Position numbers and translations under genes: made by a program. A DNA stretch of 64,000 nucleotides from an uncultured Peptococcaceae bacterium (GTDB lineage Bacteria > Bacillota > DSM-12270 > Thermacetogeniales > Thermacetogeniaceae). The stretch lies in assembly GCA_963767365.1 (NCBI GenBank), contig CAVYEE010000030.1, positions 132,475 through 196,474 on the forward strand, written 5' to 3'. The stretch's first letter is position 1; each line of letters begins with the position of its first letter. The notes below the pieces were generated by a model. It searched no databases, had not been told where the DNA came from, and saw nothing but the letters and a program-made list of their open reading frames with translations. Below, piece after piece: positions 13,197 to 31,696 of the stretch.

Positions 13197-14087
13197 TTAC
13201 GTCAACTTGTATTTGATTATTTCTTTCATGTCGTCCCTCACAGGATAGCAGCATAAAGCCAGGACTGGACCAATGTGAGCCCCGATCACCGGGCCCAACG
13301 GGCACAGTTCCAGGTACAGCTCCGGGTAAAGCCCTTGTACCCGCTGCAACAGGGCCTTCCCTTCAGCCTCGGCGCCAACGTGCACAAGCTCCACCTTCAG
13401 GTCGGGCGACTGCCGGTAGGCCTTGTCCACCTCGGCCAGGATCCGCTGCAACCCCTTCTCCTTTGTCCTGATCTTCTCGTAGACGTCGATGATGTTGTTC
13501 TTGCCGGGATTGAAATACAGGATTGGCTTCACCTGCAGCAGCGTTCCTACCAGTGCGGCAGCGCCGCCGATCCGTCCGCCCCTCCGCAGGTATTCCAGGC
13601 CGTCCGGTAAAAACAACAGCGTCAGGTGCTCCCTGATGTACTCGACGGCCTGCAGCACCCGCTCCTTTGACCAGCCGGCGGCAGCAGCCCGGGAGGCGGC
13701 ATCGACCATCACATAGAGTCCTAAGGAGGTAACGCCGGAATCCACCACGGAGATGTCCACTCCCGGCAGCATCCTGGCGGCAGAGCGGGCGGACTGCACG
13801 GTCCCGCTGATGCCCCCTGAGATATGGATGGAGATGATGCTGTCCACCTTGCCGGCCAGGCGCTCATAGACCTTTAAGAAATCGCCCATGGACGGCTGCG
13901 AGGTGGTGGGAAGATAGGATACCTGGCGCAGTTGTTCATAAAAATCCCGGTAGTCGGTAACGCTCGCTTCCGCCCAGCTCTGGTCGCCAAAGTTGACGAT
14001 CAGGGAGACCACCTCTACTTGCAGCTCTTCAATCTGCCCTGGAGTAAGATAAGCGGTACTGTCCGTCACGATCCCGATTTTTCCCAT
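13197..14087 (-). CDS. DegV family fatty-acid-binding protein
   Basis: This 296 aa ORF starts MGKIGIVTDSTAYL..., contains ...HISGGISGT..., and has DegV-typical length. Confidence 0.8.
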   Translation of the reverse strand: MGKIGIVTDSTAYLTPGQIEELQVEVVSLIVNFGDQSWAEASVTDYRDFYEQLRQVSYLPTTSQPSMGDFLKVYERLAGKVDSIISIHISGGISGTVQSARSAARMLPGVDISVVDSGVTSLGLYVMVDAASRAAAAGWSKERVLQAVEYIREHLTLLFLPDGLEYLRRGGRIGGAAALVGTLLQVKPILYFNPGKNNIIDVYEKIRTKEKGLQRILAEVDKAYRQSPDLKVELVHVGAEAEGKALLQRVQGLYPELYLELCPLGPVIGAHIGPVLALCCYPVRDDMKEIIKYKLT

Positions 14088-14257
14088 ATCGTTTCCTCCC
14101 GTCTCATTTGATCCTGCATAACTACTACTACAGTATTTGCGCTGTGGAACTTTAGTTGTACTTATTCTTGTTTCCTTGATGTTTATTCAATGCAAGTATA
14201 GCATTTTTTGAGTTTTAACTATACCTAAATCTTATTGTTTTGAACACAAGATACTTT

Positions 14258-14286
14258 CTTGACGCGTATTCACCGTAGTGCTATTT
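14258..14286 (+). promoter_or_regulatory. putative sigma70-type promoter for the cupin gene
   Basis: TTGACG-17 nt-TATTTT lies about 75 nt upstream of ATG 14362. Confidence 0.35.
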
Positions 14287-14361
14287 TGTTGGCAGGTGGC
14301 GCAATCTCCGGATAAGATACCGGAGGACGGCAAAGCACAACTTGAAAGGACGGGGAGAAGA

Positions 14362-14709
14362 ATGTATCTCAAAGAGGTAAAAAACATCGATTCCAAGGCT
14401 GTGAACGCCCCGGGAGTTGTTAATGCGTTCAAGCAAGTCCTGGTGGGGCCGCAGCAAGGCTGGTCAGGCTGGGTGATGCGCCTGTTTACCCTGGGCAAGG
14501 GCGGCAGCACCCCGAAGCACTCACATCCCTGGCCGCACATCAACTATATCGTCAGGGGGACGGGAACTCTGTTTCTGGAAGGTGAAGAGCGGGGGATCGG
14601 ATCTGATTACGTTGCCTACATCCCCGGCGGAGTAGCGCATCAGTTTAAAAACACGGGGGAGTCCGAGCTATCTTTTATCTGTATCGTGCCGGAAGAGGGA
14701 GATGTGTAA
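14362..14709 (+). CDS. cupin domain protein
   Basis: It carries cupin motifs (GGSTPKHSHPWPH ... GGVAHQFKNTG). I prefer the internal ATG at 14362, preceded by GGGGAG, over the track start at 14278. Confidence 0.7.
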   Translation: MYLKEVKNIDSKAVNAPGVVNAFKQVLVGPQQGWSGWVMRLFTLGKGGSTPKHSHPWPHINYIVRGTGTLFLEGEERGIGSDYVAYIPGGVAHQFKNTGESELSFICIVPEEGDV

Positions 14710-14858
14710 GGGAAGCACTTCCATCCCATTGCCGATGCTTCAAACAATAACAGCGGATAGACTCTTCCTTTTTCAGGAGAGCCTATCCGCTATCCATCTG
14801 TCCCGAAGCTCGACAGCATCAAGAAAGTTATTGCCGGCTTCAGACCGCCGGAACAGGT

Positions 14859-15374
14859 TCAAAGACAGTTTCCTAGCAGGTAATCACACACCGGAAGCAC
14901 CGTGTCCTGAAGTTTCCGGGACAGTCCCGGAGCAACCTCCTCGGGGATAGATTGCGGTTCAACGGCAACAAGCAGCACATCGAGCTGACACTGGTGCTTC
15001 ATCTCTTTTAAAAGGCTGGATGTTGGCAGATGGTGCAGCGAAAAATCGCCGCCTTTAACCGAAGGGAAATCTTCAACAGGCCTCACGGACACTTCTCCCG
15101 GCTGTCTTCCTGCAATCATGGTGTCTATGGCGACTATTTTTTGCGGTCTGATGGGGGACAAGGCAACAGTACACAGGATATCCCTGATGCCAGTCCCCAC
15201 ATCCAGGATGCAGACATCATCCGGCACTTTGCAATGAGTTTGGAGATGCGCAGCTACGGCCGGACCGAAGCCGTCGTCACCAAAGAGGATGTTTCCGCAT
15301 CCCAAGACGAGCACACGACTCCTGCAGAATTCTGGGATACAATCTTCAATAGATACGCCTGGCCTGCTCATCAC
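14859..15374 (-). CDS. [NiFe] hydrogenase maturation endopeptidase
   Basis: It has VLVLGCGNILFGDDGFGP and a later ...H motif. It lies directly downstream of the large subunit with a 4-nt overlap. Confidence 0.8.
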   Translation of the reverse strand: MMSRPGVSIEDCIPEFCRSRVLVLGCGNILFGDDGFGPAVAAHLQTHCKVPDDVCILDVGTGIRDILCTVALSPIRPQKIVAIDTMIAGRQPGEVSVRPVEDFPSVKGGDFSLHHLPTSSLLKEMKHQCQLDVLLVAVEPQSIPEEVAPGLSRKLQDTVLPVCDYLLGNCL

Positions 15375-16811
15375 TCTGTTATTGTCCCGGCCAGGTTCCC
15401 ATTACAGTCAAAGACGTCTATCTTGACGGGGATCCTGGCATCAAGACTATGAGTCGCGCATGATAGGCACGGATCATAGGCCCGAATTGCCATTTCTACG
15501 GTGTTAAGCACTCCCTGGTCATATTGACCGCCTTTGATGTTGTCCTGAGCCGCTTTCTTGACCGACATATTGATGGCGGCATTGTTGTGGGTTGTTCCCA
15601 CAATAATATTGACGTCCGTCACTATGCCTTTCTCATCAGTCTGGTAGTCATGAATGAGCGTCCCGCCGAGGCGCCTCCACCACTCCAATGCCCCGGGCAG
15701 CCCGGGGGCTGACCGCTTTTCTGGTATTCGGATCTGTGATCTCGGGATCATTCAAAAGTTCGATCGCCCTTTCCGCCGCATACACCGACTCGATCAGTCT
15801 TGCCCAATGATAGAGCAGAGTTAATTGGGTTGGCCTCCCGAAGCTTGCCCTGAACTCCTCCAGTTCTTTGTTGGCAAGAGGCGTGGCGATGCGGTCACAC
15901 ACGTTGATTCTGGCCAGGGCGTTCGTCCTGTAGATACCGATCGGGTTAGCCAGGTCCATGGAGAAGGGTTCTGCTGCTTTCCGGTAATAGGGGAACTTCA
16001 TGTAAGTCCAGGGCTCGACATGTTCGGCAATATAGTCCAGGTACTGCTCGGCGGCAAAGTCTTCGTATGACCCATCCCGGGTCATCATCCGGAGGTTGCC
16101 GTCGTAGAGGTTCAACGCTCCGTCCTTGACCATTCCAAGAAAGCCAGTGCTGATGGGGGCAAAGGACTTGACCAGATCAAGGTACTTGGGGAAGATCTGC
16201 GTCTTGGCAAAGTCAATGGCAAAAGTAGTGAAATCCAGGCATTCCTCGGCCATACCCTTCAGGCGTTCGACCTCATCCTTAGTAACTGGCTTGCTCCAAC
16301 CCCCGGGAACGGAGACATCGGGGTGGATGGCCTTTCCGCCCAGAATTTGAGTCATCATCTGGGCTAAAAATCTGGTGCGTACCACTCGCTTAGCCAAGTC
16401 GGGAGCCCTCTGGACAATGCCTACCACATTCCTGATGGAGTAATCGGCATCCGGTCCCAGGACAAAGTCTGGTCCTGATAGGATGAAGAAATGCAACACG
16501 TGGCTGGAGATGAAATGGGCCATGTAGGCAAGCTCGCGCAGCTTCTTTGCCGCTGACGGTATCTCTACCCCGAAAACGGCATCGCAAGCCTTGGAGGATG
16601 CCAAATGGTGTGCCCAGGGACAGACACCACAGATACGGCACACAATGCGAGGCAGTTCCTCGACCGGCCGGCCGATGCAAAATCTTTCAAATCCCCTCAG
16701 TTCAACCACGTTGACCTTCGCATCAGCGACATTTCCCTGGTCATCGAGTTGAATCGTAACCTTGGCATGACCTTCAATCCTTGTTACAGGCTGAATTACA
16801 ATCTGCTTCAT
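15371..16811 (-). pseudogene. mvhA: [NiFe] hydrogenase large subunit (Mvh/F420-non-reducing type); apparent 1-nt frameshift near 15665
   Basis: The N-terminus has RIEGH and RICGVCPWAHH, and the C-terminus has DPCLSCATH. ORFs 15648..16868 and 15371..15751 join at the conserved EAPRG/TLIHDY motif if one C is removed. The start is ATG 16811, after AAGGAAGGAG. Confidence 0.8.
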
Positions 16812-16827
16812 GGCAATTTCTCCTTCC

Positions 16828-17751
16828 TTATTTTGTCGGTGTGGGCCGGAGCCGTCCCACCACACCAATGAACCGGTTAAAAGTGGCCGCCCGATCCTCT
16901 ATTTCCTTGACATCGAGCCCAATGCTCGAGAGGGCGCCCATCATATCGACCATCGGGTTAGCTCCGGCCCGGATGGGACCGAAACAACCACGGCAGGCCA
17001 TATAAGCCTTGATACAGCGAGGGGTTTTTTCCGACCCACCACAGCCAGACCTTGTTGCCGGTCCCAGGCAGAGGAAGCCCTGTTCCATCAGGCAGCGCAC
17101 CTCATTCATGGGTTGACCCGGCACGAACTCAGCATTCTCAAGCGGCCTCTTCAACTTCACTACAGCCTTCTTCTCCCTCCTGGTAGGGCAGTCGTCGCAG
17201 ACACTCCTCTCTGCAAGGGCGAAAGGCTTCCCCGCCAAGAGGCTGGTCAAGGCCTCAGCAATTAATTCAGGCGTGGGTGGACAGCCAGGCAACTGGACAT
17301 CAACCTTGACAACCTCACTCACTGAATATACCCTGTCCATGAAGGGGGGGATATCTGCAGCCGGGGTATCCGCCGGTTCGGTGCTGCTCGTGCCCCGGTA
17401 GACTTTATCGAAGATATCCTGTGTGGTGGACAGATTGCCTAAAGCTGGTATGCCGCCAAAGTTGGCACAGGAGCCGATGGCAATCAGTGTCTTACACTTG
17501 TTGCGCAGTTCCACGGCCACCTGTTTATTCTCCTCGGTACGGATGCCCCCGCTGATGATCCCCACATCGGCCTCCGGGATTTCCAGAGTGCTTTTCTCTC
17601 CCATTTGCCCATAATACTTATGGTCCATGAGCACGGGCATATGGACAAACTCCAACTCGGGCAACAAATCCAGCAATGGCTCTCCTATATCGAGAATACT
17701 GACCTCACAACCGCCGCAGGTGGCTAGCCACTCTTCCGCTACTCGCACCAT
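16828..17751 (-). CDS. mvhG: [NiFe] hydrogenase small subunit (MvhG-like)
   Basis: This 307 aa ORF has CGGCEVS, GSCANFGGIP and distal Fe-S Cys clusters, and no Tat signal. That fits a cytoplasmic Mvh-type enzyme. Confidence 0.8.
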   Translation of the reverse strand: MVRVAEEWLATCGGCEVSILDIGEPLLDLLPELEFVHMPVLMDHKYYGQMGEKSTLEIPEADVGIISGGIRTEENKQVAVELRNKCKTLIAIGSCANFGGIPALGNLSTTQDIFDKVYRGTSSTEPADTPAADIPPFMDRVYSVSEVVKVDVQLPGCPPTPELIAEALTSLLAGKPFALAERSVCDDCPTRREKKAVVKLKRPLENAEFVPGQPMNEVRCLMEQGFLCLGPATRSGCGGSEKTPRCIKAYMACRGCFGPIRAGANPMVDMMGALSSIGLDVKEIEDRAATFNRFIGVVGRLRPTPTK

Positions 17752-17776
17752 AGACTTAACCTCCCTTCAGTTATTT

Positions 17777-17962
17777 TCACTCTCCTACCGCTTGAACCAC
17801 TCTTCTCGTGAATAAAAAGCATTGTCCACCATCCTCGATCATCTCGACATCAAATCCATCACTGCTGTATTTTTGCATCCCCTCCTCCGCCTCTTGACGA
17901 CCTGGATAGGTCATTCCATCCCACATAAATTTCTTTCCGCTGAACGTCTTTACCAGGTCCAT
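17777..17962 (-). CDS. small hypothetical protein (61 aa) inside the hydrogenase/Hdr operon
   Basis: A good RBS (GAGGTGA, 4 nt before the ATG) precedes it, and it sits tightly between mvhD and mvhG. I recognised no family. Confidence 0.5.
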   Translation of the reverse strand: MDLVKTFSGKKFMWDGMTYPGRQEAEEGMQKYSSDGFDVEMIEDGGQCFLFTRRVVQAVGE

Positions 17963-17988
17963 AACATCACCTCAAAAAGTAAGTAGTA

Positions 17989-18405
17989 CTACATTTTAAA
18001 TGGGCTAGGCCCCAGAGCCTTTACTTGAGCTGTCATCTCGGTGACAACCTCGGCAAACCTGGGCGCCTCGGATGCCGATACCCATTCCAGCCTGAATCTC
18101 TCTTCTTCAATGCCCATGTCCTGCATCATCAGCTTGATGGCATCGGCCCTGGTTTGCGCCTTCAGGTTTCCCTCCAGGTAATGGCAATCTCCAATATGAC
18201 AGCCGCAAACAAGCACTCCGTCAGCGCCTTTAGTCAAAGCATCGATGATCAGGTTTGGATGCACCATCCCACTGCACATAACCCTGATGATCCGGATATT
18301 CGGCGGATATTGGAGCCGGGAAACTCCTGTCAGATCCGCCCCCGCATAAGAGCACCAGTTGCAGCAGAAGGTCACAATCAATGGTTCAAAAGTTTCTGTA
18401 CTCAT
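17989..18405 (-). CDS. mvhD: MvhD-type [2Fe-2S] hydrogenase/Hdr electron-transfer subunit (Cys form)
   Basis: This 138 aa ORF has [12 protein letters not shown]...RVMCSG...VCGCHIGDCHY. Confidence 0.85.
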   Translation of the reverse strand: MSTETFEPLIVTFCCNWCSYAGADLTGVSRLQYPPNIRIIRVMCSGMVHPNLIIDALTKGADGVLVCGCHIGDCHYLEGNLKAQTRADAIKLMMQDMGIEEERFRLEWVSASEAPRFAEVVTEMTAQVKALGPSPFKM

Positions 18406-21400
18406 TTTATCAACGCCGCCTCCACCATAGCTTCAATCTGGTCCAGCCTGAAATTCCGCACGATAATACCCCTCTTGGGACAGGTAGCCTGACAGACGCC
18501 ACAGCCCCGGCACTTGGCGGGGTCTGACTCCACCGTCTTTTTAACGCTGCCGTCTTTCATGTACTCGATCAGGGTGAGGGCATCGTAGGGACACGGGTCA
18601 ATACAGTAGGCACAGCCGTCGCAATTCTCGTCCACCACCTGGGAGACCCTCGGGTCAAGCTCCATCCGGCGCTTGGAAAGCACTGTGGAGGCCCGGGCTG
18701 CGGCAGCGCCTGCCTGAACCAGGCTCTCAGTCAAAGACTTGGGCCCGTGCGCCAAACCACAGAAGAAGATCCCCTCATAGGCAAAATCCACCGGCCTGAG
18801 CTTCATGTGGGCTTCCAGGAAGAATCCGTCCTGTGTCAAGGGCAGCTTGAGCTTCTTGGCCAGGGCGCCGCTGTCATTCTGAGGCGTCATGCCGGTGGAT
18901 AAGATAACGGCATCGCAGTCAATATTGAGCTTCATATTCAGCAATTCATCATCCACCGCTACTGCAAGATGCCCGTTTGCGGCTGCTAATTCAGGCTTGT
19001 GGGCGGCATTGAAACGGATAAACCGCACTCCCGCTTCCCGCGCCTGACGATAATAGGCTTCATTGAAGCCGTAGGTGCGGATATCGTGGTTGAGGATGAA
19101 GACGCTGGCTTGCCGGTTCCTTTCCTTGATCTTCAGGGCGTTCTTCACCGCTTGTGAGCAGCATACCCGGCTGCAATAACCTCCCGGTGACTCGCACGGG
19201 CCAACACACTGCACCATAACAACCGAGTTTGCTTTGAAGGCGCCGCCGCTCAGTTGCTCCTCCAACTCAAGCTGGGTCATTACCCTCTGGTCTTGACCAT
19301 AGAGATATCCCTGGGGCTCATACTCTTTAGCGCCGGTAGCCACTATGGCAGCCCCGTGCTCCAGCACACGGCGCTCGCCATCTGCCTGGAACTCCGTCTT
19401 AAAGTTGCCCACCGACCCCTGGAAGTCAAGAATCTCGGCATTGGTGTAGATCTGGATCTTGGGATGAGCGGTTACCCTCTGGACCAGGGCATCCAGCATC
19501 TCCTGGGGATTATCGCCGTTCATCATGAATTTCAGACGGCGGGCATTGCCTCCTAGTTGTGGGCCCTTTTCCAGCAGGTAAGTCTGGAAGCCTTCCTCTG
19601 CCAGGTTAAGGGCAGCCGTCATCCCCGCCATGCCACCCCCGATGACCAGACCCCTGGGAACGACTTCGATGAACTGCGGGTATAGCGGCTCCAGCAATCT
19701 TGCCTTCGCCGCAGCCATTCTGACCAAGTCTTTTGCCTTTTCGGTCGCAGCCACCGGTTCATGCATGTGCACCCAGGAACACTGGTCACGGATATTGGCC
19801 ATCTCAAAGAGACAGGGATTGAGCCCGGCCTCCCGCAAGGTATCCTGGAAAAGCGGCTCATGGGTTCTTGGTGTGCATGAGGCGACGATAACCCGGTTCA
19901 GGTTATGCTCCTCAATTTTCTGCTTGATCGCCTGCTGCGTATCGGTGGAGCAGGTGTACAGGTTATCTTCGGCATAGACGACGTCAGGTAATGTTTTTAC
20001 GTATTCAACGACCTCGGGGACATTGACCACCGCTCCAATGTTCCGTCCACAATGGCAGACAAAGATACCAATCCGTGGTTCTTCTCCAACCACGTTCCTT
20101 TCCGGCGGATATGTCTTGTCACGGATCAGGGCGCCCCTCTCATCGGCAAGAAGACACATCACCTTGGCGGCTGCCGCTGAAGCCTCCATGACGCTCTCCG
20201 GAATATCCTTAGGCCCGGAAAACATGCCGGTCACGTAAATGCCGGGCTTTGAAGATTCAGTCGGCGCCAATTCCCGGGTACTGGCAAAACCGTACTCGTT
20301 AAGGTCAATGCCAAAGGTCCGGGCCAGTGAGGCGCTCTCAGATAATGGCTTTACTCCTACAGAGAGAACGATCAGGTCGAACTCGTCGCTCGCTACCTGA
20401 CCATCCTCCTGCTGGTACTGGATGGTCAGATTTTTTGTCGCCGGAATCTCCTTGACCGCTGAAGGGCGAGACCGGATGTAGCTGACGCCGAGTTCCTTGG
20501 CCCGGTGATAGTAAGCCTCGTAGCCCTTGCCGAAGGCCCGCATATCGATATAGAAAATGGTGCAGTCGGTATCAGGAGCATGCTCCTTGACAATGACAGC
20601 CTCCTTGGTGGCATACATGCAACAGATTGAAGAGCAGTATTCGTGGTCCACTTCCCACGAGCCCACGCATTGAATAAAGGCTATTTTCCTTGGCGGCTTG
20701 AGGTCGGAGGGGCGAAGGACATGACCCATGTGGGGGCCGCTTGCCGAAAGCAACCGTTCAAACTGGAGGCTGGAGACAACATTGGGATACCGCCCGTAGC
20801 CGAGTTCCTGCCTGGGTACCGGGTCGACGGTCTCGTAGCCGGGTGCCAGGATCACGGCGCCTGCCTCGATCTCGACGATTTCGTCCTCCTGATCGTAGTC
20901 GATCGCCTTTGGCCCGCAGAAGTTCTCGCAGGTCCGGCAGGCATCCTGACCATCCCTGAGAAAATGCATGCAGGTAGTCCGGTCAATGACCGGTACCTTG
21001 GGTATGGCCTGGGCGAAGGGAATGTAAATCGACCGTCTCCCGGCAAGGCCCTCATCGTATTCGGAGAGGATTGGCCGCGGCTTATTCCTAGTGATTTTTG
21101 CCAGATCGATTGCTCCGGTGGGGCACACTGTCACGCAGGCGCCACAGGTGACACAGGCGTCGGAAAACTCGCCGAAAGGCGGGCTGACCTTCCTCTTATG
21201 GCCGCGGCCGACGAAATCAATGGCGCCGACCTTCATCCTTTCCCGGCATACCCGGACGCAAAGCCCACACAGGATGCACTGCTCATTCTCATCCGGTTGG
21301 AAGCGCCGCATGAACGCCTCGTCGACACCGATTTCCCCTGCCAGTTCTTTCAGCTTGGGGACATCTGGGCAACGCAGGAGCAGCAGTTCCATCACGAGCC

Positions 21401-21647
21401 GGCGCGCCGCCATGACGCGGGGAGATGCCGTCTGGACCTCCATCCCTTCCTCTACCGGGGCGGCGCAGGAAGCAGTCAGTTCTCTGCCATTGACTTCCAC
21501 CAGGCACAAACGGCAGGCTCCCTGTGGGAGCAAGGCTTTATGATAGCAGAGGGTGGGGATCCTGATGCCGGCCAACTCGGCGGCCTGCAGGATGGTTGTT
21601 CCCGGCTCTGCCTGGACGGGCCTCCCGTCAATGTTCAACTTCAGCAT
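18402..21647 (-). CDS. giant fusion: NuoG/HndD-like 2Fe-2S+4Fe-4S N-terminus + N-terminally truncated HdrA unit + complete HdrA unit
   Basis: This is an intact ORF of about 1081 aa starting at ATG 21647, after GGAGGAG. The N-terminus reads MLKLNIDGRPV...CYH...CRLCLVEV. The sequence then picks up HdrA at EYDEGLAGRRSIYIPFAQAIPKVPVID... A second full HdrA unit follows (FVCHCGRNIG...GLVIGGGMAGM...FFLEAHMKLRPV...). Confidence 0.8.
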   Translation of the reverse strand: MLKLNIDGRPVQAEPGTTILQAAELAGIRIPTLCYHKALLPQGACRLCLVEVNGRELTASCAAPVEEGMEVQTASPRVMAARRLVMELLLLRCPDVPKLKELAGEIGVDEAFMRRFQPDENEQCILCGLCVRVCRERMKVGAIDFVGRGHKRKVSPPFGEFSDACVTCGACVTVCPTGAIDLAKITRNKPRPILSEYDEGLAGRRSIYIPFAQAIPKVPVIDRTTCMHFLRDGQDACRTCENFCGPKAIDYDQEDEIVEIEAGAVILAPGYETVDPVPRQELGYGRYPNVVSSLQFERLLSASGPHMGHVLRPSDLKPPRKIAFIQCVGSWEVDHEYCSSICCMYATKEAVIVKEHAPDTDCTIFYIDMRAFGKGYEAYYHRAKELGVSYIRSRPSAVKEIPATKNLTIQYQQEDGQVASDEFDLIVLSVGVKPLSESASLARTFGIDLNEYGFASTRELAPTESSKPGIYVTGMFSGPKDIPESVMEASAAAAKVMCLLADERGALIRDKTYPPERNVVGEEPRIGIFVCHCGRNIGAVVNVPEVVEYVKTLPDVVYAEDNLYTCSTDTQQAIKQKIEEHNLNRVIVASCTPRTHEPLFQDTLREAGLNPCLFEMANIRDQCSWVHMHEPVAATEKAKDLVRMAAAKARLLEPLYPQFIEVVPRGLVIGGGMAGMTAALNLAEEGFQTYLLEKGPQLGGNARRLKFMMNGDNPQEMLDALVQRVTAHPKIQIYTNAEILDFQGSVGNFKTEFQADGERRVLEHGAAIVATGAKEYEPQGYLYGQDQRVMTQLELEEQLSGGAFKANSVVMVQCVGPCESPGGYCSRVCCSQAVKNALKIKERNRQASVFILNHDIRTYGFNEAYYRQAREAGVRFIRFNAAHKPELAAANGHLAVAVDDELLNMKLNIDCDAVILSTGMTPQNDSGALAKKLKLPLTQDGFFLEAHMKLRPVDFAYEGIFFCGLAHGPKSLTESLVQAGAAAARASTVLSKRRMELDPRVSQVVDENCDGCAYCIDPCPYDALTLIEYMKDGSVKKTVESDPAKCRGCGVCQATCPKRGIIVRNFRLDQIEAMVEAALIK

Positions 21648-24600
21648 GGCTCTCACTCCTCCGCCAGTCGTCCTTGGTAGCTGCTGCCAGATCACAACGA
21701 AGACAACGCCGGGCCTCTTTAATGGCCATCTCTTCAGTTAAACCTAGCTCCACCAAATTGAAGTTGTTTACTCTCTGGGACACCTCGGCACAAGGCATGG
21801 GAAAACGCTTCGCCTCAAGATCTTCCTCTGTCCGCGGGACCGGTTCCACATAAGGTGATGGCTGAGTAACGGTGTATTCATGCCTCACCGATTGACCCCG
21901 CAGGAACCTGTGGATACTGGCCGCGGCTAACTTACCGCTGGCTATGGAATCAGCAATGGTGGAAGGCCCGGTCACGGCATCGCCGGCGGCAAAGATACCC
22001 TCTCGTCCCGTAGCCAGGGTTTCCGGATAAATTACAATCGTGTTGCGATTGGATAGCTCCAACCCATGCCCGGGAGGCAGGAAGGAGAGGTCGGGTTCCT
22101 CACCGACAGCCAGGATGAGAGTATCTACCTGGCGAACGGATTCAGACCCCTTGATGAGGACTGGCAGGCGTCGGTCAGTCTCATCATATTCTCCCAATTC
22201 CACATCGAGACACTCGATGCCGCTCAACTTGCCATCACTGGCAACAATCCGGGAGGGGGCGCAGAGTTCGATGATCTTTATCCCTTCCTCAACCCCGGCT
22301 TCGATCTCTCGTTTCATGGCCGGCATTTCTGCCTTGCTTCTTCGGTAGATGATGGAGACATCCTTAGCGCCGGCTCGCAGGGCGGTACGGGCGGCATCAA
22401 TCGCCGCGTTGCCGCCGCCGATGACCCCCACCTTCTCGCCCAGCAGGACGCTGTTGCCTGCCTTAATTGCCTTCAGAAAGTCAAAAGCATACATTACACC
22501 GGGGGTATCTTCACCGGGCAGACCTAATCTCAAACTCCTGTGGGCACCTACAGCCAGGAGGATCGCTTTATAATCCCTGGCAAAAAGGTTGTCAAAGGTC
22601 AGATCCGGCCCTACAGGCGTATTGGTAAGGATTTCTATACCGGCCTGCCTGATGCAATCAATTTCTTGATCCAGGATATTTCGCGGCAAGCGATACTCCG
22701 GGATAACCATCGCCAGGTTTCCGCCCACAACGGAGCCCGCCTCAAAAATAGTGGGCTGGTAACCCAGTCGTGCCAGATCGAAAGCCGCAGCTAGGCCGGC
22801 CGGGCCGGAGCCAACAATGGCTATTTTCTCCAGCTTGGACGTCTCGGGGTTAGGCAACGGTTTCAAGCCGTTCTTGAGGGCATAATCGCCAACAAAGCGT
22901 TCAGGGCCTTGATGGATATCGATTCACCACCGGTCTCAAGAGAGCGGCACCGCTCCTCGCAGGGATGGTGGCAGATATAGCCGCAAGTGATTGGCAGAGG
23001 ATTCGGCCTGCGGATCACGTCGAAGGCTTCCCGGTATTCTTTCCTGGCAATATGGGCAACAAAGGTTGGCACATCGGTTTTCACCGGGCAATTGTATTTG
23101 CAAGGGGTGAAGATTATCTTCTTGCACACCATGGCGGGGCAGCGCTTGTACTTGATGTGCTGTTCATATTCATCCCGGAAATAGCGGGTGGTGGTCAGGA
23201 CCGGGTTGGGCGCCGAATTTCCCAGGCCGCACAGCGAGGAATCGATGATTACCCCGGCCATCTGCTCCAACAGCTCGATGTCGCCCTCCCGTCCGCGCCC
23301 TTCGGTGATGTCGGTGAGGATTTCCAGCATCCTTTTCGTCCCTTCACGGCAGGGAGTGCATTTACCGCAGGATTCATCCACGGTAAAGGTGAGAAAGTAC
23401 TTGGCCACGTTGACCATGCAGGTGTCCTCATCCATCACCACCATGCCACCCGAACCCATGATGGAGCCAGCCCCGGCCAGGGTCTCGTAGTCTGCCGAAA
23501 GATGCGCCAACCGCGCTGGGATACAGCCTCCCGAGGGACCGCCGGTCTGCACTGCCTTGAACCTCTTCCCAGCGGGAATGCCTCCGCCGACATCATAGAC
23601 AAGCGACTTCAGGCTGATGCCCATGGGCACTTCCACCAGCCCGGTGTTATTCACCTTTCCCACCAGGGAGAAGACTACCGTCCCCTTGCTCCGTTCCGTA
23701 CCCACGGCAGAGAACCAGTCACTCCCCCGGACGATAATCAGCGGGACATTGGCCCAGGTTTTAACATTGTTCAGGAGGGTCGGCTTGCCCCAGAGCCCGC
23801 TTTCTGCCGTCCGTGGCGGGCGCTGGCGCGGCTCCCCCGCCAAACCCTCGATTGAGGCGATCAGGGCGGTGGCTTCCCCGCAAACAAAAGCGCCGGCGCC
23901 CTCCTTGATCTGCAGGTGGAAGCTGAAGTCTGTGCCGAGGATCTTGTCTCCCAGCAATCCCAGCTCCTCCGCCTGGGCGATGGCGATCGTCAAGCGCCTG
24001 ATTGCCAGCGGGTACTCCGCCCGGCAGTAAATATAGCCTTCCGTGGCCCCAATGGCATAAGCGCCGATGATCATCCCCTCGATGACGCTGTGTGGGTCAC
24101 CCTCGAGAATGCTCCGGTCCATGTAGGCTCCAGGGTCGCCCTCGTCTGCGTTGCAGATGATATATTTGAGGCTGCCTTTAGCCCGACGGCATGTAGCCCA
24201 TTTTCTTCCGGCGGGAAAACCGGCGCCTCCCCTCCCCCGTAAACCCGAGTTGGTCACCTGTTGGATTATTTCCTCGGGCTTCAATTGATGGAGCGCCTTA
24301 TAGAGCGCAAAATACCCTCCACCGGCAATGTACTCCGTAATCTGTTCGGGATCGATGAGGCCGCAATTCCGCAGGATCCGCTTCTCTTGTTTGCTAAAGA
24401 AAGGTAAATCGGCATAGTCGGGGATCTCTTCAATTTCCGCCGGCAGCGTGCCCAAAGGGTAGCTTCTGACCGTATCCTCAAGCAGATTTACCTCTTCCCT
24501 GATCTTGCAGAGAAGGTACTTGGGAAGAATACGCCCGTCAGCCAGGGCGTCAATGATTTCCCTTGCTTTTCCTTCGTCCACCTTGGCGTAAATAATTCTC

Positions 24601-24848
24601 GGCCAGCCGGGCCTGGTGATATCTACAATGGGTTCTTTCTCACAGAACCCCAGGCAGCCGGTGCTGGTAACCATGCAGTCCAGGTTGCTGCTGGCGACCT
24701 CCTGCTGGATCGCTGCCAGGACTTCCGTAGCGCCCGCTGCGCGGCCACAACTGGCCATCCCTACCGCAATCTTGGTCGAGGCCGGGAAAAGAGAATGTAG
24801 ACCATCTTCCTTAAGCTGATTGAGGTCTTCCAAATTGCAGATCCTCAT
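21628..24848 (-). pseudogene. NuoF-like FMN/NADH module fused to GltD/NfnB-like FAD subunit; apparent 1-nt frameshift near 22901
   Basis: ORF 22863..24923 has NuoF motifs (GRGGAGFP, CGKCTPCREG) followed by a GltD N-terminal Fe-S domain. It runs into ORF 21628..22866 as ...GESISIKAL/ERFVGDYALKNGLKPLPNPETSKLEKIAIVGSGPAGL... after correcting one missing nucleotide. The start is ATG 24848. Confidence 0.75.
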
Positions 24849-25295
24849 CTTCACCACTCCCATATTTTGCCAAAACTTCTTTGACCAACTCCGGCCGCAT
24901 ATGGGCATATACTTGCTGATCAACCTGGATGACCGGCGCTAGGGCGCAACAACCGAGACACCGCACAATTTGCAGGCCGAACTTCCCGTCGGGAGTGACT
25001 TCGCCGGGCTTGATCTCCAGGGCTCTTTCCAGTTCATCCAGGATTCTGTCCGATCCGCGCACGAAGCAACTAGTGCCCTGGCAGATATTGATGACATGTT
25101 TGCCTTTCGGTTTGAGACTGAAAACGAGTAAAACGTAGCCACCTTCAAGATAGCGGCGAGAGGAATGTCGAGTTCTTGCGACACATGACGCAATACAGGC
25201 TCCGGCAGGTAGTTGAACTCTTTTGAATATCCTGAAGCACACTGATGAGTGGGCCGGCCTCGGCAACGGCGGTTGATAATGTCGTCAACTTTCAT
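24811..25295 (-). pseudogene. NuoE-like [2Fe-2S] thioredoxin-fold subunit; several apparent indels (about 25122, 25221, 25269)
   Basis: The conserved NuoE/HydC string can only be read by frame hopping: MKVDDIINR / VAEAGPLISVLQDIQK / EFNYLPEPVLRHVSQELDIPLAAILKVATFYS / FSLKPKGKHVINICQGTSCFVRG...CLGCCALAP. Confidence 0.65.
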
Positions 25296-25329
25296 TCGCC
25301 CTTCAGCCGGTAAGCCCGTTTCCTTCTGT

Positions 25330-25718
25330 TCAGGCTTGGGGTAAGATCGGTATTGGACCAGGCAATTTTGGGCGCATTCCCCACAGCCGGTGCATTTGTC
25401 CGGGTCAACCGAACGTGCTTTTTTCCTAATCCGGACACGGAACCGGCCCGGTGTTCCCTCAATATCAATTACCTCCGCATAAGTCAGCTTCTCGATGTTG
25501 ATGTGCCTGCCGCAGTCAACCATCCTGGGCGCTAAGGTGCACATGGCGCAATCATTCGTCGGGAAGGTCTTGTCGAGCTGGGCCATCACGCCGCCAATGG
25601 CGGGGTCCTTCTCCACCAGGTAAACCTTGAAACCAGATTCGGCCAGGTCAAGGGATGCCTGCATCCCGGCAATGCCGCCCCCCACCACCAGCACCGCGCC
25701 CACCTTTTGATCAGGCAT
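25330..25718 (-). pseudogene. hdrA: orphan HdrA N-terminal fragment (Rossmann GGGIAG + DKTFPTNDCAMC + first ferredoxin motif only)
   Basis: MPDQKVGAVLVVGGGIAGMQASLDLAESGFKVYLVEK...QLDKTFPTNDCAMC...CTGCGECAQNC, after which HdrA similarity stops. As sequenced, the frame runs on into nuoE. One extra C would give ...NCPGPIPILPQA-stop at 25330. Confidence 0.6.
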
Positions 25719-26583
25719 ATTGCGTCACCTCCAGCAGTCTGTCCGCCGTTATAAAATTATTTCCGAGCATCAGTTCCTGCGAAGAGAGCCCAAGACCGAT
25801 CCCCATCAATTGAGTGAAATAAAGAATGGGCAACTCATAGTTCATACCATAAGCCGTTTTAATTTCTTTCTGGCGCGTATCTAAATTCATATGGCAGAGT
25901 GGGCAAGCAACAGCTATCACATCGGCGCCCACCGACCTGGCCCCTTCCAGGATCTCATGGCAGAGTTTCAACACGATGTCTGTCCTTGTCGTAGCGAAAG
26001 AAGCCCCGCAGCAATCTGTCTTATAGGACCAGTCCAGGGTAACGATGCCCAGCGCCCTTAATATTTGGTCCATGCTTTCCGGATACTCACAGGCATCAAA
26101 CTGGACGACCTTCGGCGGTCTGGTCAGGAGGCACCCGTAATAGCAAGCCACTTTGAGGTCGTTTAATTCTCGTTTCACCAGGCGGGAAATTGTCGTCAAG
26201 AGAGGCTCTTGGGAGAACAACTGGAGCGGGTGATAAACCGCCACGTCGTCGCTCCATGAGCCTTTGACGACTTGCTTCGCCTCTTCTTTCAGGCCGGCGT
26301 CATTTTTCACATCGTGCAGAGCCGACTTGAAGCGTGAGAAGCAAGAGGCGCAGGGAACGACGACCTCCCTGAGTCCCATCCTTTCAATAATGGCCAGGTT
26401 GCCCAATGGCAGGGCCGTAGCAAGCAACCTGGAGACACTGTGAGCCGGAGTCGTGCCGCAGCAGAACCAGTCCTTGACCTCCTCCAGTTCAATATCCAAC
26501 TGGCTACAGACCTTGCGAAGAGACAAATCGTATTCTTTTGCGTAGGAATGCAAAGAGCAACCAGGGTAATAGGCGTATCTCAT
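25711..26583 (-). CDS. hdrB: heterodisulfide reductase subunit B (two CCG domains)
   Basis: This 290 aa ORF has YYPGCSL...WFCCGT and ...YYGCLLTRP...TDCCGA. Confidence 0.88.
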   Translation of the reverse strand: MRYAYYPGCSLHSYAKEYDLSLRKVCSQLDIELEEVKDWFCCGTTPAHSVSRLLATALPLGNLAIIERMGLREVVVPCASCFSRFKSALHDVKNDAGLKEEAKQVVKGSWSDDVAVYHPLQLFSQEPLLTTISRLVKRELNDLKVACYYGCLLTRPPKVVQFDACEYPESMDQILRALGIVTLDWSYKTDCCGASFATTRTDIVLKLCHEILEGARSVGADVIAVACPLCHMNLDTRQKEIKTAYGMNYELPILYFTQLMGIGLGLSSQELMLGNNFITADRLLEVTQYA

Positions 26584-27155
26584 ATCTTCCCCCTACTCTT
26601 TTCCCTGCGTTTGACTTGGGAAAATATTCTCCTTGCTGATGATGCCCCATTAAAGCTGGGCAAGAGATTCAGCTTTCCCTTTTTCAGCATCTCCAACCCC
26701 AGCCCCACATCCTTCGTAAAGCTGCGGGTGGAGACCTTGAAAGCAGCCATTAACCCCAGGTCGTACATCCGGCCGAAAAGTCTGATGCTATATAAGGCAC
26801 TCTGATTAAAGATCGGGATTTCGGGGACTTTAGCCTTGATCTTCTGACGCTGGGCAAGTATCCTGACGGCATCCATTACCGCAGCAATGTCCACGTCCTG
26901 CGGGCACCGGGTGGTGCATGTCTGACATGAAGCACAGAGCCAGATTGTTTTGCTTTTGAAGACGAGATCGCTCAATCCTAACTGGATCGCATGGAGTATT
27001 TGCGGAGGCGTATAATCCATGGCATAGGCAACTGGACACCCGCTAGCACACTTTGTGCATTGGAAACACGAGTTGACATTAACGCCGCTGACATTTCTCA
27101 AGGTTTCAGCAAAATTGGAGAATCCTTGCGCAACACTAAAGGTTTGTTTAATCAT
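26580..27155 (-). CDS. hdrC: heterodisulfide reductase subunit C
   Basis: It has two 4Fe-4S motifs (CFQCTKCASGCP, CASCQTCTTRCP). I prefer ATG 27155, after a GGAGG/GGGGAG-rich RBS, over GTG 27185. Confidence 0.85.
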   Translation of the reverse strand: MIKQTFSVAQGFSNFAETLRNVSGVNVNSCFQCTKCASGCPVAYAMDYTPPQILHAIQLGLSDLVFKSKTIWLCASCQTCTTRCPQDVDIAAVMDAVRILAQRQKIKAKVPEIPIFNQSALYSIRLFGRMYDLGLMAAFKVSTRSFTKDVGLGLEMLKKGKLNLLPSFNGASSARRIFSQVKRREKSRGKI

Positions 27156-27185
27156 CTCCCCACCTGCCTCCCCGTTTATGACCAC

Positions 27186-28896: not shown

Positions 28897-29660
28897 TTAG
28901 CGAATCAGGTAGATTACAGCTACCGCAACCCCGATCACCACCACAATAGATCGCAGAACATCCGGTTTCACCCGCCCCGCCAGTTTTCCGCCCAGCGCCC
29001 CACCAAGCAACGCCCCCACGAACATCACCAGCGCCACCGGCCACACAATCCTTCGCGAAAACACGAATAATACTGCTGCCGCCACATTTGCACTGAACGA
29101 GATCGTCTGTTTGAGAGCATTGAGCCTCGTCAATGAGTCATCGACGGTGACTCCCAAAACAGCCAGCACAATCACGTTCATCCCCCCGACAAAGTATCCC
29201 CCATAAAGGGCTGTCAATCCCACCGGGATCAGCCCCATAAATCTGAGCCTGTTGGGGATGCGGCTACCTGTGTTCGGCGCGTCAACCAGTCGCGCACACG
29301 TTTTTGAAAAGCCAGCAGCCCTACGGCTAGTAGAATCAAATAGGGTACCAATTCACGAAAGATGTTCTCGGACGTGGCTTTCAAGAGCAGCCCGCCCAGC
29401 AGTCCGCCGGCCAAACCCACAGGAATGTACAACCAGAGGCGTCGCTTTTGTCCCTGCAAGTCCTTGAGTTGGGAATAAATGCCCCCCAGGTAGCCAGGGC
29501 ACAGGGCCACAGTGTTGGTCATTTTGGCAGCAACAGGAGGTATGCCCACCACAGTCAGCACTAGGAATGCGATGAGAGTGCCCCCGCCGGCGAGAGCGTT
29601 AATTGCTCCTGCGGCTAGGGCTGCCAGGGCTACTAACATATAATCCAGCAGGTTGAGCAT
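28897..29660 (-). pseudogene. TauE/SafE (DUF81) family anion exporter; two overlapping half-ORFs (frameshift about 29240-29290, or a natural split)
   Basis: The two halves are 143 aa and 113 aa. Both are polytopic and Gly/Leu-rich (AGAINALAGGGTL..., GGALGGKLAG...). Together they equal one DUF81 protein of about 255 aa. Confidence 0.6.
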
Positions 29661-29851: not shown

Positions 29852-30691
29852 CTACCACTCGGGAGGCAATTTACGGAGTTGGGCCAGGTTGAAGACCGGA
29901 CCGTCGAGACAGATATACTTGGATCCGATGTTACAGCGGCCACATTGACCGATGCCGCACTTCATGCGCCCCTCAAGAGTGGTCACAATCTGGTTATCCT
30001 GGAAGCCTAGCTTCTGCAGCGATGCCAGCACCAGCCTGATCATGATCGGCGGCCCACAGACAACGGCAGTAACGTTATCCGAACTGGGAGCGAGCTCCTC
30101 CAGGCATGTGGGCACAAAAGCCACGTTGCCGTCCCAGCCTGACTCCGGGCGGTCGATCGTGGTGATCACCCTGGTATCCGGCTGGGATGGCCATAACTCG
30201 AACAGCTCTTTCTTAAAGCAGAGGTCTGCCACGCTGCGCGCCCCGTAGAGAATCTGGATGCTGCCATATTTCTCCCGGTTGGTAAAGCAGTGCTTGATCA
30301 GGGAGCGGAGCGGCGCCAGTCCGATCCCGCCTCCGATGAACAGCATGTTTTTCCCCTCGTACTCATCCACCGGAAAGCCGTTGCCATAGGGCCCCCTGAC
30401 CCCTAATTCCTGATCGATCTCGATCTCGTGCAGGGCGTCCGTCAAGAGGCCCACCCTTCTGATGGCAAACTCCAGGTGGTCTTCGGCCTGCCAGGCGACG
30501 GAAAACATCCCCTCGCCGACAGGCAGCAGGGAGACCATGCACAACTGCCCCGGCCTCACCTGAAAAGGCACACCATTTTCAGCGGTTAAGTGAAAGTTCT
30601 TAACGTCATAAGTTTCCTCGATGATGTCGATGACCTTGAAAATCCTCGGAACAAGCAGATTATTGCCATTGCTAACGGGAGACATCTGCAT
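29852..30691 (-). CDS. FAD/NAD(P)-binding + C-terminal [2Fe-2S] oxidoreductase (FlxA / AsrB / sulfhydrogenase-gamma-like)
   Basis: This 279 aa ORF has a ferredoxin-reductase fold (MLFIGGGIGLAPL) and a C-terminal CGIGQCGRCNIG. Confidence 0.75.
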   Translation of the reverse strand: MQMSPVSNGNNLLVPRIFKVIDIIEETYDVKNFHLTAENGVPFQVRPGQLCMVSLLPVGEGMFSVAWQAEDHLEFAIRRVGLLTDALHEIEIDQELGVRGPYGNGFPVDEYEGKNMLFIGGGIGLAPLRSLIKHCFTNREKYGSIQILYGARSVADLCFKKELFELWPSQPDTRVITTIDRPESGWDGNVAFVPTCLEELAPSSDNVTAVVCGPPIMIRLVLASLQKLGFQDNQIVTTLEGRMKCGIGQCGRCNIGSKYICLDGPVFNLAQLRKLPPEW

Positions 30692-31690: not shown

Positions 31691-31696
31691 CTGATG

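Follow-up and report, generated by a model that had tools for sequence, protein, structure and literature searches.

An HdrA-type flavoprotein gene interrupted by a NuoE-NuoF-NuoG-like cassette

A stretch of 64,000 nucleotides (nt) from an uncultured Peptococcaceae bacterium of the family Thermacetogeniaceae (GenBank assembly GCA_963767365.1, contig CAVYEE010000030.1, positions 132,475 to 196,474), called the window in the following, contains a gene for the heterodisulfide reductase flavoprotein HdrA in two pieces. An N-terminal piece, here termed AN, adjoins a nuoE-like sequence, and the remainder is encoded downstream in a giant protein, hereafter the giant, behind a NuoG-like iron-sulfur module. 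A reading made from the letters of the DNA (the sequence-only reading) had left the choice between a complementing split flavoprotein and a dead relic. Which of the two is encoded here, and what might such a divided protein do? It is found that the genes for a NAD(P)H module of the HydCBA/Bfu type interrupt the coding sequence of a tandem HdrA within the inserted ferredoxin domain of its first unit. On the basis of the analysis below we consider it likely that the HdrA-type protein, the Bfu NAD(P)H module and an Mvh hydrogenase form one conserved redox complex, in which the cassette sits in the ferredoxin insert of unit 1 and the flavin adenine dinucleotide (FAD) domain of this unit is reassembled in trans.

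The elements of HdrA on two polypeptides

The open reading frame (ORF) that starts at 25718 aligns over its residues 10-119 with residues 144-253 of another HdrA of the window, termed Sec-HdrA (BLASTP, 55% identity, E 3e-37), and an ortholog of AN matches residues 145-258 of PDB entry 5odc_A (E 2.7e-38). The alignment with Sec-HdrA spans VVGGGIAGMQ, IGGxMAQLDKTFPTxDCxxC and the first CxxCxxCxxxC motif, in agreement with the sequence-only reading, which had followed the similarity from GGGIAGM to this motif. The giant begins, as had also been proposed, with a NuoG-like module in which Pfam finds Fer2_4 and a 2x[4Fe-4S] domain and whose closest solved homologues are NuoG-like/HydA N-terminal modules (9mqx_A, E 1.6e-38; 8a6t_A, E 1.2e-36). 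Its HdrA similarity resumes where it had been predicted to, at EYDEGLAGRRSIYIPFAQAIPKVPVID, corresponding to Sec-HdrA residue 262 onward, and extends to residue 567 at the end of the thioredoxin-reductase-like domain (BLASTP 39%, E 2e-70); this remainder of unit 1, A1r, also matches 5odc_A 248-510. The second HdrA unit of the giant, A2, aligns with residues 3-232 (42%) and 312-658 (32%) of Sec-HdrA (BLASTP) and with 5odc_A 2-234 and 467-647. It had been regarded as complete, but both the ferredoxin insert and the DCxxC motif are missing from it. Order and content of the units match those of tandem HdrA proteins, with unit 1 of the giant truncated at its N-terminus and placed behind the NuoG-like module.

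The break lies inside the inserted ferredoxin domain of HdrA, between its two cluster motifs. The GxGxxG and DCxxC motifs are carried by the AN::NuoE chain, the motifs CVGSR..YCS..CC and GPKDIP by the giant, and no single chain has a complete FAD domain. The giant has no GxGxxG before residue 670; this one, the sole GxGxxG of the giant in a Rossmann context, belongs to unit 2, so that unit 1 is without its Rossmann start. A complete first FAD-binding domain in the giant, which the sequence-only reading had named as counter-evidence, is not present. The two CxxCxxCxxxC-type motifs of the insert are both invariant and are found on separate chains, motif 1 on AN (C109-C119) and motif 2 on the giant (C226, C237, C240, C244). 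A BLAST alignment over residues 163-175 seemed to place motif 1 on the giant itself; this was rejected as motif mimicry, the CxxCxxCxxxCP in question being part of the 8-Cys ferredoxin domain of the NuoG-like module. The count of cysteines is instructive here. The NuoG-like module holds its own 4 + 8 Cys, for one [2Fe-2S] and two [4Fe-4S] clusters, and one orphan half-motif is left on each chain. As the module already has its full 8-Cys set, motif 1 of AN and motif 2 of the giant would pair with each other and make up exactly one HdrA insert. That both are kept speaks against a relic, which would have no reason to keep them. Against the NCBIfam models NF041778 / NF040770 the giant reaches 853 bits at a cut-off of 1100 (HdrA2) and 650 at a cut-off of 1400 (HdrA), and AN::NuoE scores 163 bits at a cut-off of 1100.

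The cassette between the two HdrA halves, which had been described as nuoE, nuoF/gltD and a fer2 module inserted into the ferredoxin insert, is indeed found in this position, with nuoF and gltD to be counted as one gene (see below). Its NuoE part is nearest to HydC/BfuC of bifurcating hydrogenases (ortholog against 7t2r_C, E 8e-40, and 8a6t_C, E 9e-38), and the cluster cysteines C214, C219, C255 and C259 (numbering of the intact relative P0121) are invariant. The NuoF part is nearest to HydB/BfuB including the N-terminal thioredoxin-like domain (residues 34-579 against 7t2r_B 16-540, E 2e-214). In the window the C-terminal ferredoxin domain of the BfuB-like protein is replaced by Fer4_20 and a GltD domain, of which residues 581-1053 are nearest to the GltD-type domain of NfnA/StnA (9bov_A; 9n5u_A, NfnA); a counterpart in Phycisphaerae (1022 aa) is likewise fused, while L001, a metagenome contig with the closest full-length relative, keeps the canonical C-terminus. 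The NuoG-like part is nearest to the short BfuA of 9mqx and has no His-cluster motif. The genes follow each other as nuoE-like, nuoF-like and truncated nuoG-like (C, B, A), which is the usual hydCBA gene order.

In the sequence-only reading the HdrA piece was a free product of 125 aa with a gene boundary at 25330. There is no stop codon at this place; the frame stays open from the HdrA piece into NuoE (ORF 24939-25718), and AN is the N-terminal domain of an in-frame NuoE fusion. An internal Met taken as the start of nuoE falls away as well, its position being Ile or Leu in relatives. In the window the nuoE part is spread over three frames by single-base homopolymer indels, namely an extra T at about 25265, a shortening of A5 to A4 at 25221-25224 and one of T5 to T4 at 25121-25124. 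The repaired AN::NuoE (302 aa) is 91% identical over its full length, HdrA/NuoE junction included, to P0121, an intact protein of 303 aa. Comparison with a contig from another metagenome, L005, which is 98.9% identical to window 9482-23230, revealed single-base indels only, each next to or in a short run of the base concerned, with the exception of one intergenic 7-nt difference. Relative to L005 an A is absent at about 22899/22900, and when it is restored NuoF, Fer4_20 and GltD form one ORF of 1073 aa, so that nuoF and gltD are a single gene. An extra G at about 15666, which breaks the gene of the hydrogenase large subunit, is absent from L005. Conversely, L005 is broken at three sites of the giant at which the window is intact; each assembly breaks at different places. 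Two more frameshifts are found further along in the gene for Sec-HdrA::MvhD (about 33440 and 32700). The frameshifts of the window look like assembly errors and not like gene decay, and with so indel-prone an assembly any call of a pseudogene within the window is suspect.

An assembly that is rich in indel errors might also have produced the HdrA/NuoE junction by a misjoin, which the sequence-only reading had considered for 25296-25360. Yet the junction peptide NC(L/V)VQY(R/W)SYPKPEQKETGL... is found in the independent, 91%-identical intact protein, and the fusion architecture occurs in 40 other genomes and in the top 120 database matches, making a chimera extremely unlikely.

Conservation of the split layout and its unsplit relatives

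Relatives of the giant were searched in one genome per GTDB species. A single-sequence query matched nothing, whereas an alignment query worked and gave at least 598 stretches that encode relatives of the giant; the layout was surveyed in the best 80 of these at least 598, annotated with domain queries from the window locus. Three architectures were found. In architecture I, tandem HdrA is a single chain (AN-A1r-A2) of about 1010-1045 aa; in architecture II it contains an inserted Fer4_20-GltD, as in HdrL, and has about 1480-1550 aa. These are the unsplit relatives, a search for which had been suggested together with the split. Architecture III, that of the window, consists of [AN::NuoE], [NuoF with or without GltD] and [NuoG-like-A1r-A2], followed by mvhD in nearly all loci that reach that far. 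The layout hdrC-hdrB-[AN::nuoE]-[nuoF(::gltD)]-[giant]-mvhD recurs throughout the 42 type III loci with informative upstream sequence, from more than 15 phyla. AN is present in every one of the 42, fused to NuoE in 40 and as a separate ORF in two (L041, with a clean TAA stop, and L046). Two further loci that had been scored as lacking AN are uninformative: the sequence of L023 starts only within nuoF, and in the scaffold L039 the giant is flanked by N-gaps to either side. The hosts include Planctomycetota, Verrucomicrobiota, Acidobacteriota, Bacteroidota, Ignavibacteriota-like organisms, Spirochaetota, Fidelibacterota, Aminicenantes, Aerophobetes, Stahlbacteria, Desulfobacterota, Actinomycetota and Chloroflexota and, among archaea, Altiarchaeales and Thermoplasmata.

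Both chains are strictly conserved. Full-length homologues of the giant have 1077-1101 aa and 59-78% identity and come from Anaerolineae, Dehalococcoidales, Phycisphaerae, Planctomycetota, TA06 and others. In the first 270 aa of the giant, all of the 17 cysteines save C93 are invariant among 23 homologues, as is GPKDIPE; in unit 1 as a whole CVGS..YCSSxCCMYATKE, GPKDIPE, C226, C237, C240 and C244 do not vary. AN::NuoE is one protein of 286-303 aa in relatives, with 287 aa in L001 and 299 aa in Phycisphaerae SM1_79, both of which carry the FAD-type and the NuoE Pfam domain in this upstream protein. The top 120 database relatives of the repaired fusion all have 247-313 aa, and both the FAD-type domain and PF01257 are present in all but one; they are named 'NuoE family protein', 'FAD-dependent oxidoreductase' or 'heterodisulfide reductase subunit A'. 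Among the 42 split-type AN sequences, GxGxxG, IGGxMxQLDKTFPTNDCxMC and the four Cys of motif 1 are conserved to at least 95%, which is at least as strict as in unsplit relatives. One position is peculiar: after the fourth Cys of motif 1 split-type AN has Leu or Val (NCLV; window aa 119-121, about 25356-25364), whereas Pro, the usual residue (CPV), stands there in the unsplit relatives and in the free-standing AN of L041.

These data bear on the idea that AN is a decaying relic of the cassette insertion, unit 1 having become a flavin-free scaffold while only the second HdrA unit works. The three frameshifts in AN::nuoE of the window and a low AlphaFold2 (AF2) confidence for AN (see below) would agree with it. 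The frameshifts are, however, homopolymer-length errors of the same kind as those in nuoF::gltD, in the hydrogenase large-subunit gene (hydL) and in Sec-HdrA, L005 is broken elsewhere and the 91%-identical P0121 is intact. Moreover, AN persists with its FAD and Cys motifs in all informative loci, unit 1 shows no variation in its FAD-side motifs, and in L041 AN survives even as a free-standing ORF. A relic is thus very improbable. Of the two outcomes first envisaged, the complementing split flavoprotein is strongly favoured by the presence of AN in 42/42 loci and by its motif conservation, with complementation as such deduced from the sequences.

The split and the unsplit state can be compared directly in two loci of Chloroflexota type, L001 (5749-14882, split) and L006 (2353-9814, an Anaerolineae metagenome-assembled genome, MAG; unsplit with inserted GltD). 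Their nucleotide identity is 84% over hdrC, hdrB and the first approximately 75 codons of AN and 86% over the stretch that begins at about residue 234 of the giant, includes mvhD and reaches into the hydrogenase gene. The loci differ only in the central cassette enclosed by these flanks, which measures 3.4 kb in L001, where it encodes the rest of AN, NuoE, NuoF and the NuoG-like module, and 1.7 kb in L006, where it encodes the rest of AN, the ferredoxin half and GltD. Of the two breakpoints, one lies within AN, near codon 75, and the other at the second ferredoxin motif. Since the flanks are shared around the swapped cassette, L006 carries the same AN covalently in unit 1. In a crude neighbour-joining tree of the shared A1r-A2 part the three architectures interleave, which suggests repeated cassette exchange. 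Of the 40 fused loci, 11 have GltD on NuoF and 29 lack it. A derivation of the GltD of the window from an HdrL-type insertion was considered and rejected, as the insertion points differ (before EFxxGL here, after it in L006) and as the GltD of the window is a C-terminal extension of NuoF that is absent from L001.

Two side observations concern the unsplit relatives. In L084, a Syntrophaceae MAG, the order [tandem HdrA][MvhD][NuoE][NuoF][short NuoG-like] is that of BamEFGHI, and this set adjoins a GltD-inserted HdrA. In the unsplit L047 (2190-6632) and L077 (5197-8337) an in-frame TGA, likely a selenocysteine codon, replaces the second Cys of DCxMC; ORF finders cut at this TGA and give a false 'N-terminal fragment' that is distinct from the real split.

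Could AN be functional and yet not complement unit 1, acting instead as an accessory iron-sulfur, nucleotide-binding or docking domain of the NuoE-like subunit, with unit 1 lacking a canonical FAD? The change from CP to C(L/V) after motif 1, which is peculiar to the split type, is in line with such a role, and docking of AN on unit 1 is read from sequences and not from a structure. Nevertheless, a fragment of about 120 aa with one beta-alpha-beta unit, a beta-meander and half a ferredoxin motif is no known autonomous fold, and AF2 folds the attached NuoE domain confidently but not AN. Neither motif 1 of AN nor the orphan motif 2 of the giant varies, and the two together amount to exactly one 2x[4Fe-4S] domain; the unsplit orthologous loci have the same AN covalently in unit 1. 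An accessory role is therefore unlikely.

The conserved core is found in different contexts. A [NiFe] hydrogenase is present in 22 type III loci, and in 30 no partner is seen within the available sequence. In L087 and L088, contigs from JGI metagenomes, the block hdrC-hdrB-AN::nuoE-nuoF-giant-mvhD is preceded by genes for carbon monoxide dehydrogenase/acetyl-CoA synthase (CODH/ACS) and followed by metV-metF, and L046 is likewise linked to metVF. In these three loci the split core stands in a Wood-Ljungdahl cluster, with CODH/ACS and a pterin-binding protein upstream and metV-metF downstream, and no hydrogenase genes were seen within the retrieved sequence. In L087 mvhD is called as two ORFs (66 and 82 aa), of which an in-frame selenocysteine codon is a possible cause. 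In the Phycisphaerae locus L002 (7182-10004) five extra genes (DRTGG, CBS+HATPase, DRTGG, PHP and HATPase_c) lie between nuoF and the giant; we take them to resemble accessory or regulatory genes of hydrogenase (hydCBA-type) operons. A similar nuoF-giant spacing of 5.8-7.2 kb in L007-L011, L014 and L016-L019, from other Planctomycetota and several other phyla, suggests the same extra genes there.

This arrangement also bears on the idea that the chains are made as one polyprotein by recoding, i.e., by programmed frameshift or readthrough, so that HdrA is not truly split. Neighbouring genes overlap by 4-38 nt in different frames, and the selenoprotein genes of the window imply that recoding machinery exists. 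On the other hand, the AN::NuoE/NuoF and NuoF/giant boundaries of intact relatives are ordinary stops and starts in varied frames and with varied spacings, up to five unrelated genes separate nuoF from the giant in Planctomycetota, and in a polyprotein about 1500 residues would still separate the halves of the FAD domain. It is scarcely conceivable that recoding joins these chains.

The putative complex, its genes and their surroundings

We infer that AN and the giant together rebuild, in trans, one FAD domain of the thioredoxin-reductase-like type and one 2x[4Fe-4S] insert, and complementation is, from the motifs and their distribution, much likelier than decay. Both are fused to members of a tight NuoE-NuoF-NuoG-type subcomplex, which would keep the two halves in register. 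We think that the insertion of three genes is tolerated because the NuoE-like and the NuoG-like protein bind the same NuoF-like protein, as in all solved HydABC-type complexes. AF2 models of the single chains show a pattern that fits, weakly, with halves that are incomplete when alone. In the model of the AN::NuoE fusion (alignment of 40 sequences) the predicted local distance difference test (pLDDT) is mostly 82-98 for the NuoE domain and 32-68 for AN, with a mean of 68 for the whole model; in the giant it is 78-94 for the complete unit 2 and 43-84 for the incomplete unit 1, with a mean of 62 and a predicted template modelling score of 0.40 for the whole model.

For the path of electrons a guide is the cryo-electron microscopy structure of class II benzoyl-CoA reductase, in which BamE is a fused HdrA dimer, unit 1 (TrxR1) carrying the bifurcating and unit 2 a structural FAD (bioRxiv 10.64898/2026.04.10.717634). 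There the inserted ferredoxin domain is the low-potential output, and BamGHI enters via the C-terminal ferredoxin domain and the MvhD-like BamF (bioRxiv 10.64898/2026.04.10.717634). By analogy with BamE, the split unit would be the bifurcating one, with the spliced module on the low-potential branch and the hydrogenase connected through MvhD. In such a scheme, unit 1 would carry the bifurcating FAD as in HdrA and BamE, and electrons from hydrogen would enter via MvhAG and MvhD, both steps at lower confidence than the division itself. The electrons of H2 would be bifurcated at the split FAD. The high-potential branch may run through HdrCB to a disulfide, again at lower confidence. The branch of the ferredoxin insert, by which methanogen HdrA reduces free ferredoxin, would here lead from the reassembled insert over the NuoG-like clusters and end at the FMN/NAD(P)H module. 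This direction of flow, from H2 to a disulfide and the NAD(P)H module, is a tentative assignment to which we give somewhat less than even odds. A reverse scheme was put forward for GltD-inserted HdrA, with NADH as donor and H2 evolution and disulfide reduction as outputs (PMC12054007), and could apply here too.

Several points weigh against a reassembled and so connected complex. The mean pLDDT of the single-chain AF2 models (68 and 62) marks them as low to moderate in quality, the docking of AN on unit 1 is derived from sequence comparison, and the split family is known from its genes. The exchange of Pro for Leu/Val after motif 1 may mean that the ferredoxin insert is remodelled. In Bam, furthermore, the Bfu-type module feeds HdrA via the C-terminal ferredoxin domain and the MvhD-like subunit and not via the insert, so that the wiring proposed here would be the first of its kind, and the direction of the electrons is a guess from analogy.

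The genes of the locus (Table 1) are arranged from 5' to 3' on the minus strand as hdrC, hdrB, AN::nuoE, nuoF::gltD, giant, mvhD, a small ORF, the hydrogenase small and large subunits and a protease. The 3' end of the hdrB-like gene shares 8 nt with the start of AN::nuoE. The large and small hydrogenase subunits adjoin mvhD and hdr genes, as in group 3c (Mvh/Vhu-type) hydrogenases, to which they may belong; the matches to VhuA, VhuG and, for MvhD, VhuD all lie below their cut-offs.

Table 1. Features of the split hdrA locus. Positions are those within the 64,000-nt window; all genes are tightly packed on the minus strand. Domain calls are from Pfam, family names from the best NCBIfam match, and solved homologues are PDB entries.
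Feature	Position	Strand	Remarks
hdrC-like (2x[4Fe-4S] subunit)	26580..27185	-	Fer4_8/Fer4_17; 71% identity to HdrC of L001; top NCBIfam match CoB-CoM heterodisulfide reductase subunit C, under curated cut-off
hdrB-like (two CCG domains)	25711..26583	-	CCG x2, E 4e-23; 76% identity to HdrB of L001
AN::nuoE fusion gene	24811..25718	-	about 302 aa once repaired; three homopolymer indels; three-frame reading
AN domain (aa 1-122)	25353..25718	-	HdrA Rossmann beta-alpha-beta with GxGxxG, IGGVMAQLDKTFPTNDCAMC motif and ferredoxin-insert motif 1 (C109xxC112xxC115xxxC119)
Linker between AN and NuoE domain	25314-25352	-	about 13 aa
NuoE/HydC/BfuC-like thioredoxin-like [2Fe-2S] domain	24811..25313	-	PF01257, E 8e-32
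nuoF::Fer4_20::gltD	21628..24848	-	one gene of 1073 aa after restoring the A missing at about 22899/22900; NuoF/HydB/BfuB-like flavin mononucleotide (FMN) subunit with thioredoxin-like N-terminal domain and C-terminal GltD-type FAD/NAD(P)H module
Giant, 1081 aa	18402..21647	-	NuoG-like iron-sulfur module, remainder of HdrA unit 1 and second HdrA unit
GN (giant aa 1-190), NuoG/HydA-N/BfuA-like	21078..21647	-	Fer2_4 E 4e-23, Fer4_7; 9mqx_A E 1.6e-38; [2Fe-2S] ligands Cys 34, 45, 48, 61; 2x[4Fe-4S] ligands Cys 124/127/130/134 and 165/168/171/175
A1r (giant aa 195-510)	20118..21065	-	second half of HdrA ferredoxin insert and rest of thioredoxin-reductase-like unit 1; insert motif 2 Cys 226, 237, 240, 244; CVGS..YCSSxCCMYATKE and GPKDIPES present, GxGxxG absent
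A2 (giant aa 520-1081), second HdrA unit	18402..20090	-	N-terminal 4-Cys domain, GxGxxG at 670, C-terminal 2x[4Fe-4S] domain
mvhD-like ([2Fe-2S] adaptor)	17989..18405	-	FlpD E 2e-55; start overlaps stop of giant by 4 nt; top stand-alone NCBIfam model VhuD (E 4e-39), HdrA2 model with fused MvhD-like end scores higher, both under cut-offs
Conserved 61-aa ORF	17777..17962	-	between mvhD and hydrogenase genes; 64% identity to 66-aa ORF of L001
[NiFe]-hydrogenase small subunit (MvhG/VhuG-like)	16828..17751	-	83% identity to L001 gene; top NCBIfam match VhuG E 2e-70, under cut-off
[NiFe]-hydrogenase large subunit (MvhA/VhuA-like)	15371..16811	-	frameshifted by extra G at about 15666; tblastn matches in two frames; top NCBIfam match of L001 ortholog VhuA E 3e-148, under curated cut-off
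hycI-type hydrogenase maturation protease	14859..15374	-	69% identity to HycI of L001; Pfam HycI on relatives

The small ORF of 61-66 aa between mvhD and the gene of the hydrogenase small subunit is kept in other loci (L001 13666-13866; L002 13766-13966; L006 8607-8807) and has no match in Pfam or NCBIfam. Its product could be a small subunit of the complex that has escaped recognition, or a factor for its assembly.

Elsewhere in the window a second Hdr-type locus is located on the minus strand at 29852-36628. It contains an HdrD-like Fer4+CCG protein (35411-36628), followed by an HdrA::MvhD fusion, the Sec-HdrA used above, with in-frame TGA codons at two Cys positions (DCSA-U at about 34437 and G-U-HIGDCHY at about 32840) that presumably encode selenocysteines, and then by Fer4 proteins and a NAD_binding_1/DHODB_Fe-S_bind protein (29852-30691). 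A gene of the TauE family is seemingly split into two ORFs (29229-29238). The G+C content falls to 0.40-0.50 over 36-52 kb (36000-52000), with a reversal of GC skew at 44-50 kb, and rises to 0.66 at the right end (62000-64000); no tRNA gene was found in the 64,000 nt.

Comparison with known systems

Tandem 'type II' and GltD-inserted 'type III' HdrA have been described in archaea (PMC12054007), HdrL in Desulfobacterium autotrophicum (PMC2702500), and the Bfu family including Bam-Bfu has been defined (PMC9304861). A limited literature search (papers on HdrA/Bfu diversity, HdrL and deep-sea Chloroflexi) yielded no description of an HdrA of which one part is fused to NuoE and the other to NuoG; no PDB entry contains AN::NuoE or the giant fusion, and no NCBIfam model is above its cut-off for either. 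As far as this search reaches, the split layout is undescribed, with relations to tandem HdrA/BamE, HdrL and Bfu. Under the names currently given to the chains, the missing HdrA half is easily overlooked in metabolic reconstructions from MAGs. If the reassembly holds, a cofactor-binding Rossmann domain and a ferredoxin domain would each be naturally divided between two chains, with a bearing on the tolerance of a gene to multi-gene insertion, on the design of split flavoproteins and on annotation.

With HdrA of the methanogen MvhAGD-HdrABC complex (5ODC) the locus shares the FAD/thioredoxin-reductase-like domain, DCxxC, the 2x[4Fe-4S] insert and the N-terminal 4-Cys and C-terminal ferredoxin domains. 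The operon partners HdrB, HdrC, MvhD and an Mvh-type [NiFe] hydrogenase are shared as well, hdrB, hdrC and mvhD flanking the locus of the window. In contrast to the methanogen protein, the locus distributes these elements over two HdrA units and two chains, with a NAD(P)H module in the ferredoxin insert.

HdrL and other 'type III' HdrA proteins, to which L006 (P0043) belongs, have a NAD(P)H-binding flavin module in the same ferredoxin insert (PMC2702500; PMC12054007). HdrL, however, is one polypeptide and gains GltD only, and in L006 the insertion follows the EFxxGL...ID segment. In the window the break precedes this segment, and the insertion of three genes leaves the protein in two parts; GltD, if present, is located on NuoF.

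With the Bfu family (HydABC, NiFe-HydABCSL, NfnABC/Stn, Wor-Bfu) the cassette shares the order BfuC, BfuB, BfuA, and its closest solved homologues are HydC/HydB/HydA-N, NfnABC and Wor-Bfu (PMC9304861). Its BfuA-like part is without the His-ligated cluster, as in 'type 2' BfuA. It differs from this family in that BfuC and BfuA are each fused to half an HdrA domain and in that GltD of the window replaces the C-terminal 2x[4Fe-4S] domain of BfuB, which is kept in L001.

A further parallel is the Bam complex. Tandem ('type II') HdrA and BamE likewise consist of two fused HdrA units with the insert in the first one only (PMC12054007; bioRxiv 10.64898/2026.04.10.717634), and Bam likewise joins an HdrA-type with a HydABC/Bfu-type module (BamGHI), an MvhD-like adaptor and an HdrBC-like subunit. 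In BamBCDEFGHI, though, genes after bamE encode the NuoE-, NuoF- and NuoG-like proteins as separate subunits, which feed the C-terminal ferredoxin/MvhD side. In the window they are encoded inside hdrA, the NuoE- and NuoG-like parts being fused to HdrA halves and joined at the inserted ferredoxin domain. Moreover, no tungsten BamBC module is found in the split locus, the partner being a [NiFe] hydrogenase or, in L087, MetVF.

Of the four known families of electron-bifurcating enzymes, two are the HdrA-type and the HydABC/Bfu-type enzymes. Their presence together in one complex was not known until the structure of class II benzoyl-CoA reductase appeared in 2026, and this enzyme is the precedent for such a combination (bioRxiv 10.64898/2026.04.10.717634; PMC9304861). 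We regard it as an evenly balanced question whether the split loci represent a widespread new class of redox supercomplexes. In such a class the Bfu/HydCBA module would be covalently plugged into the low-potential (ferredoxin-insert) branch of HdrA. The bifurcating FAD site and the 2x[4Fe-4S] domain would be built from two chains held by the fused scaffold, and the core would be portable between Mvh hydrogenase, MetVF and CODH/ACS contexts. The swaps with GltD or with no cassette would then mark the insert as a general docking socket for electron modules. If true, this would be the second case after benzoyl-CoA reductase and a far more widespread one, from more than 15 bacterial phyla and several archaeal lineages, with the modules joined at a different point, so that the gene fusions themselves would show which cofactor chains are neighbours.

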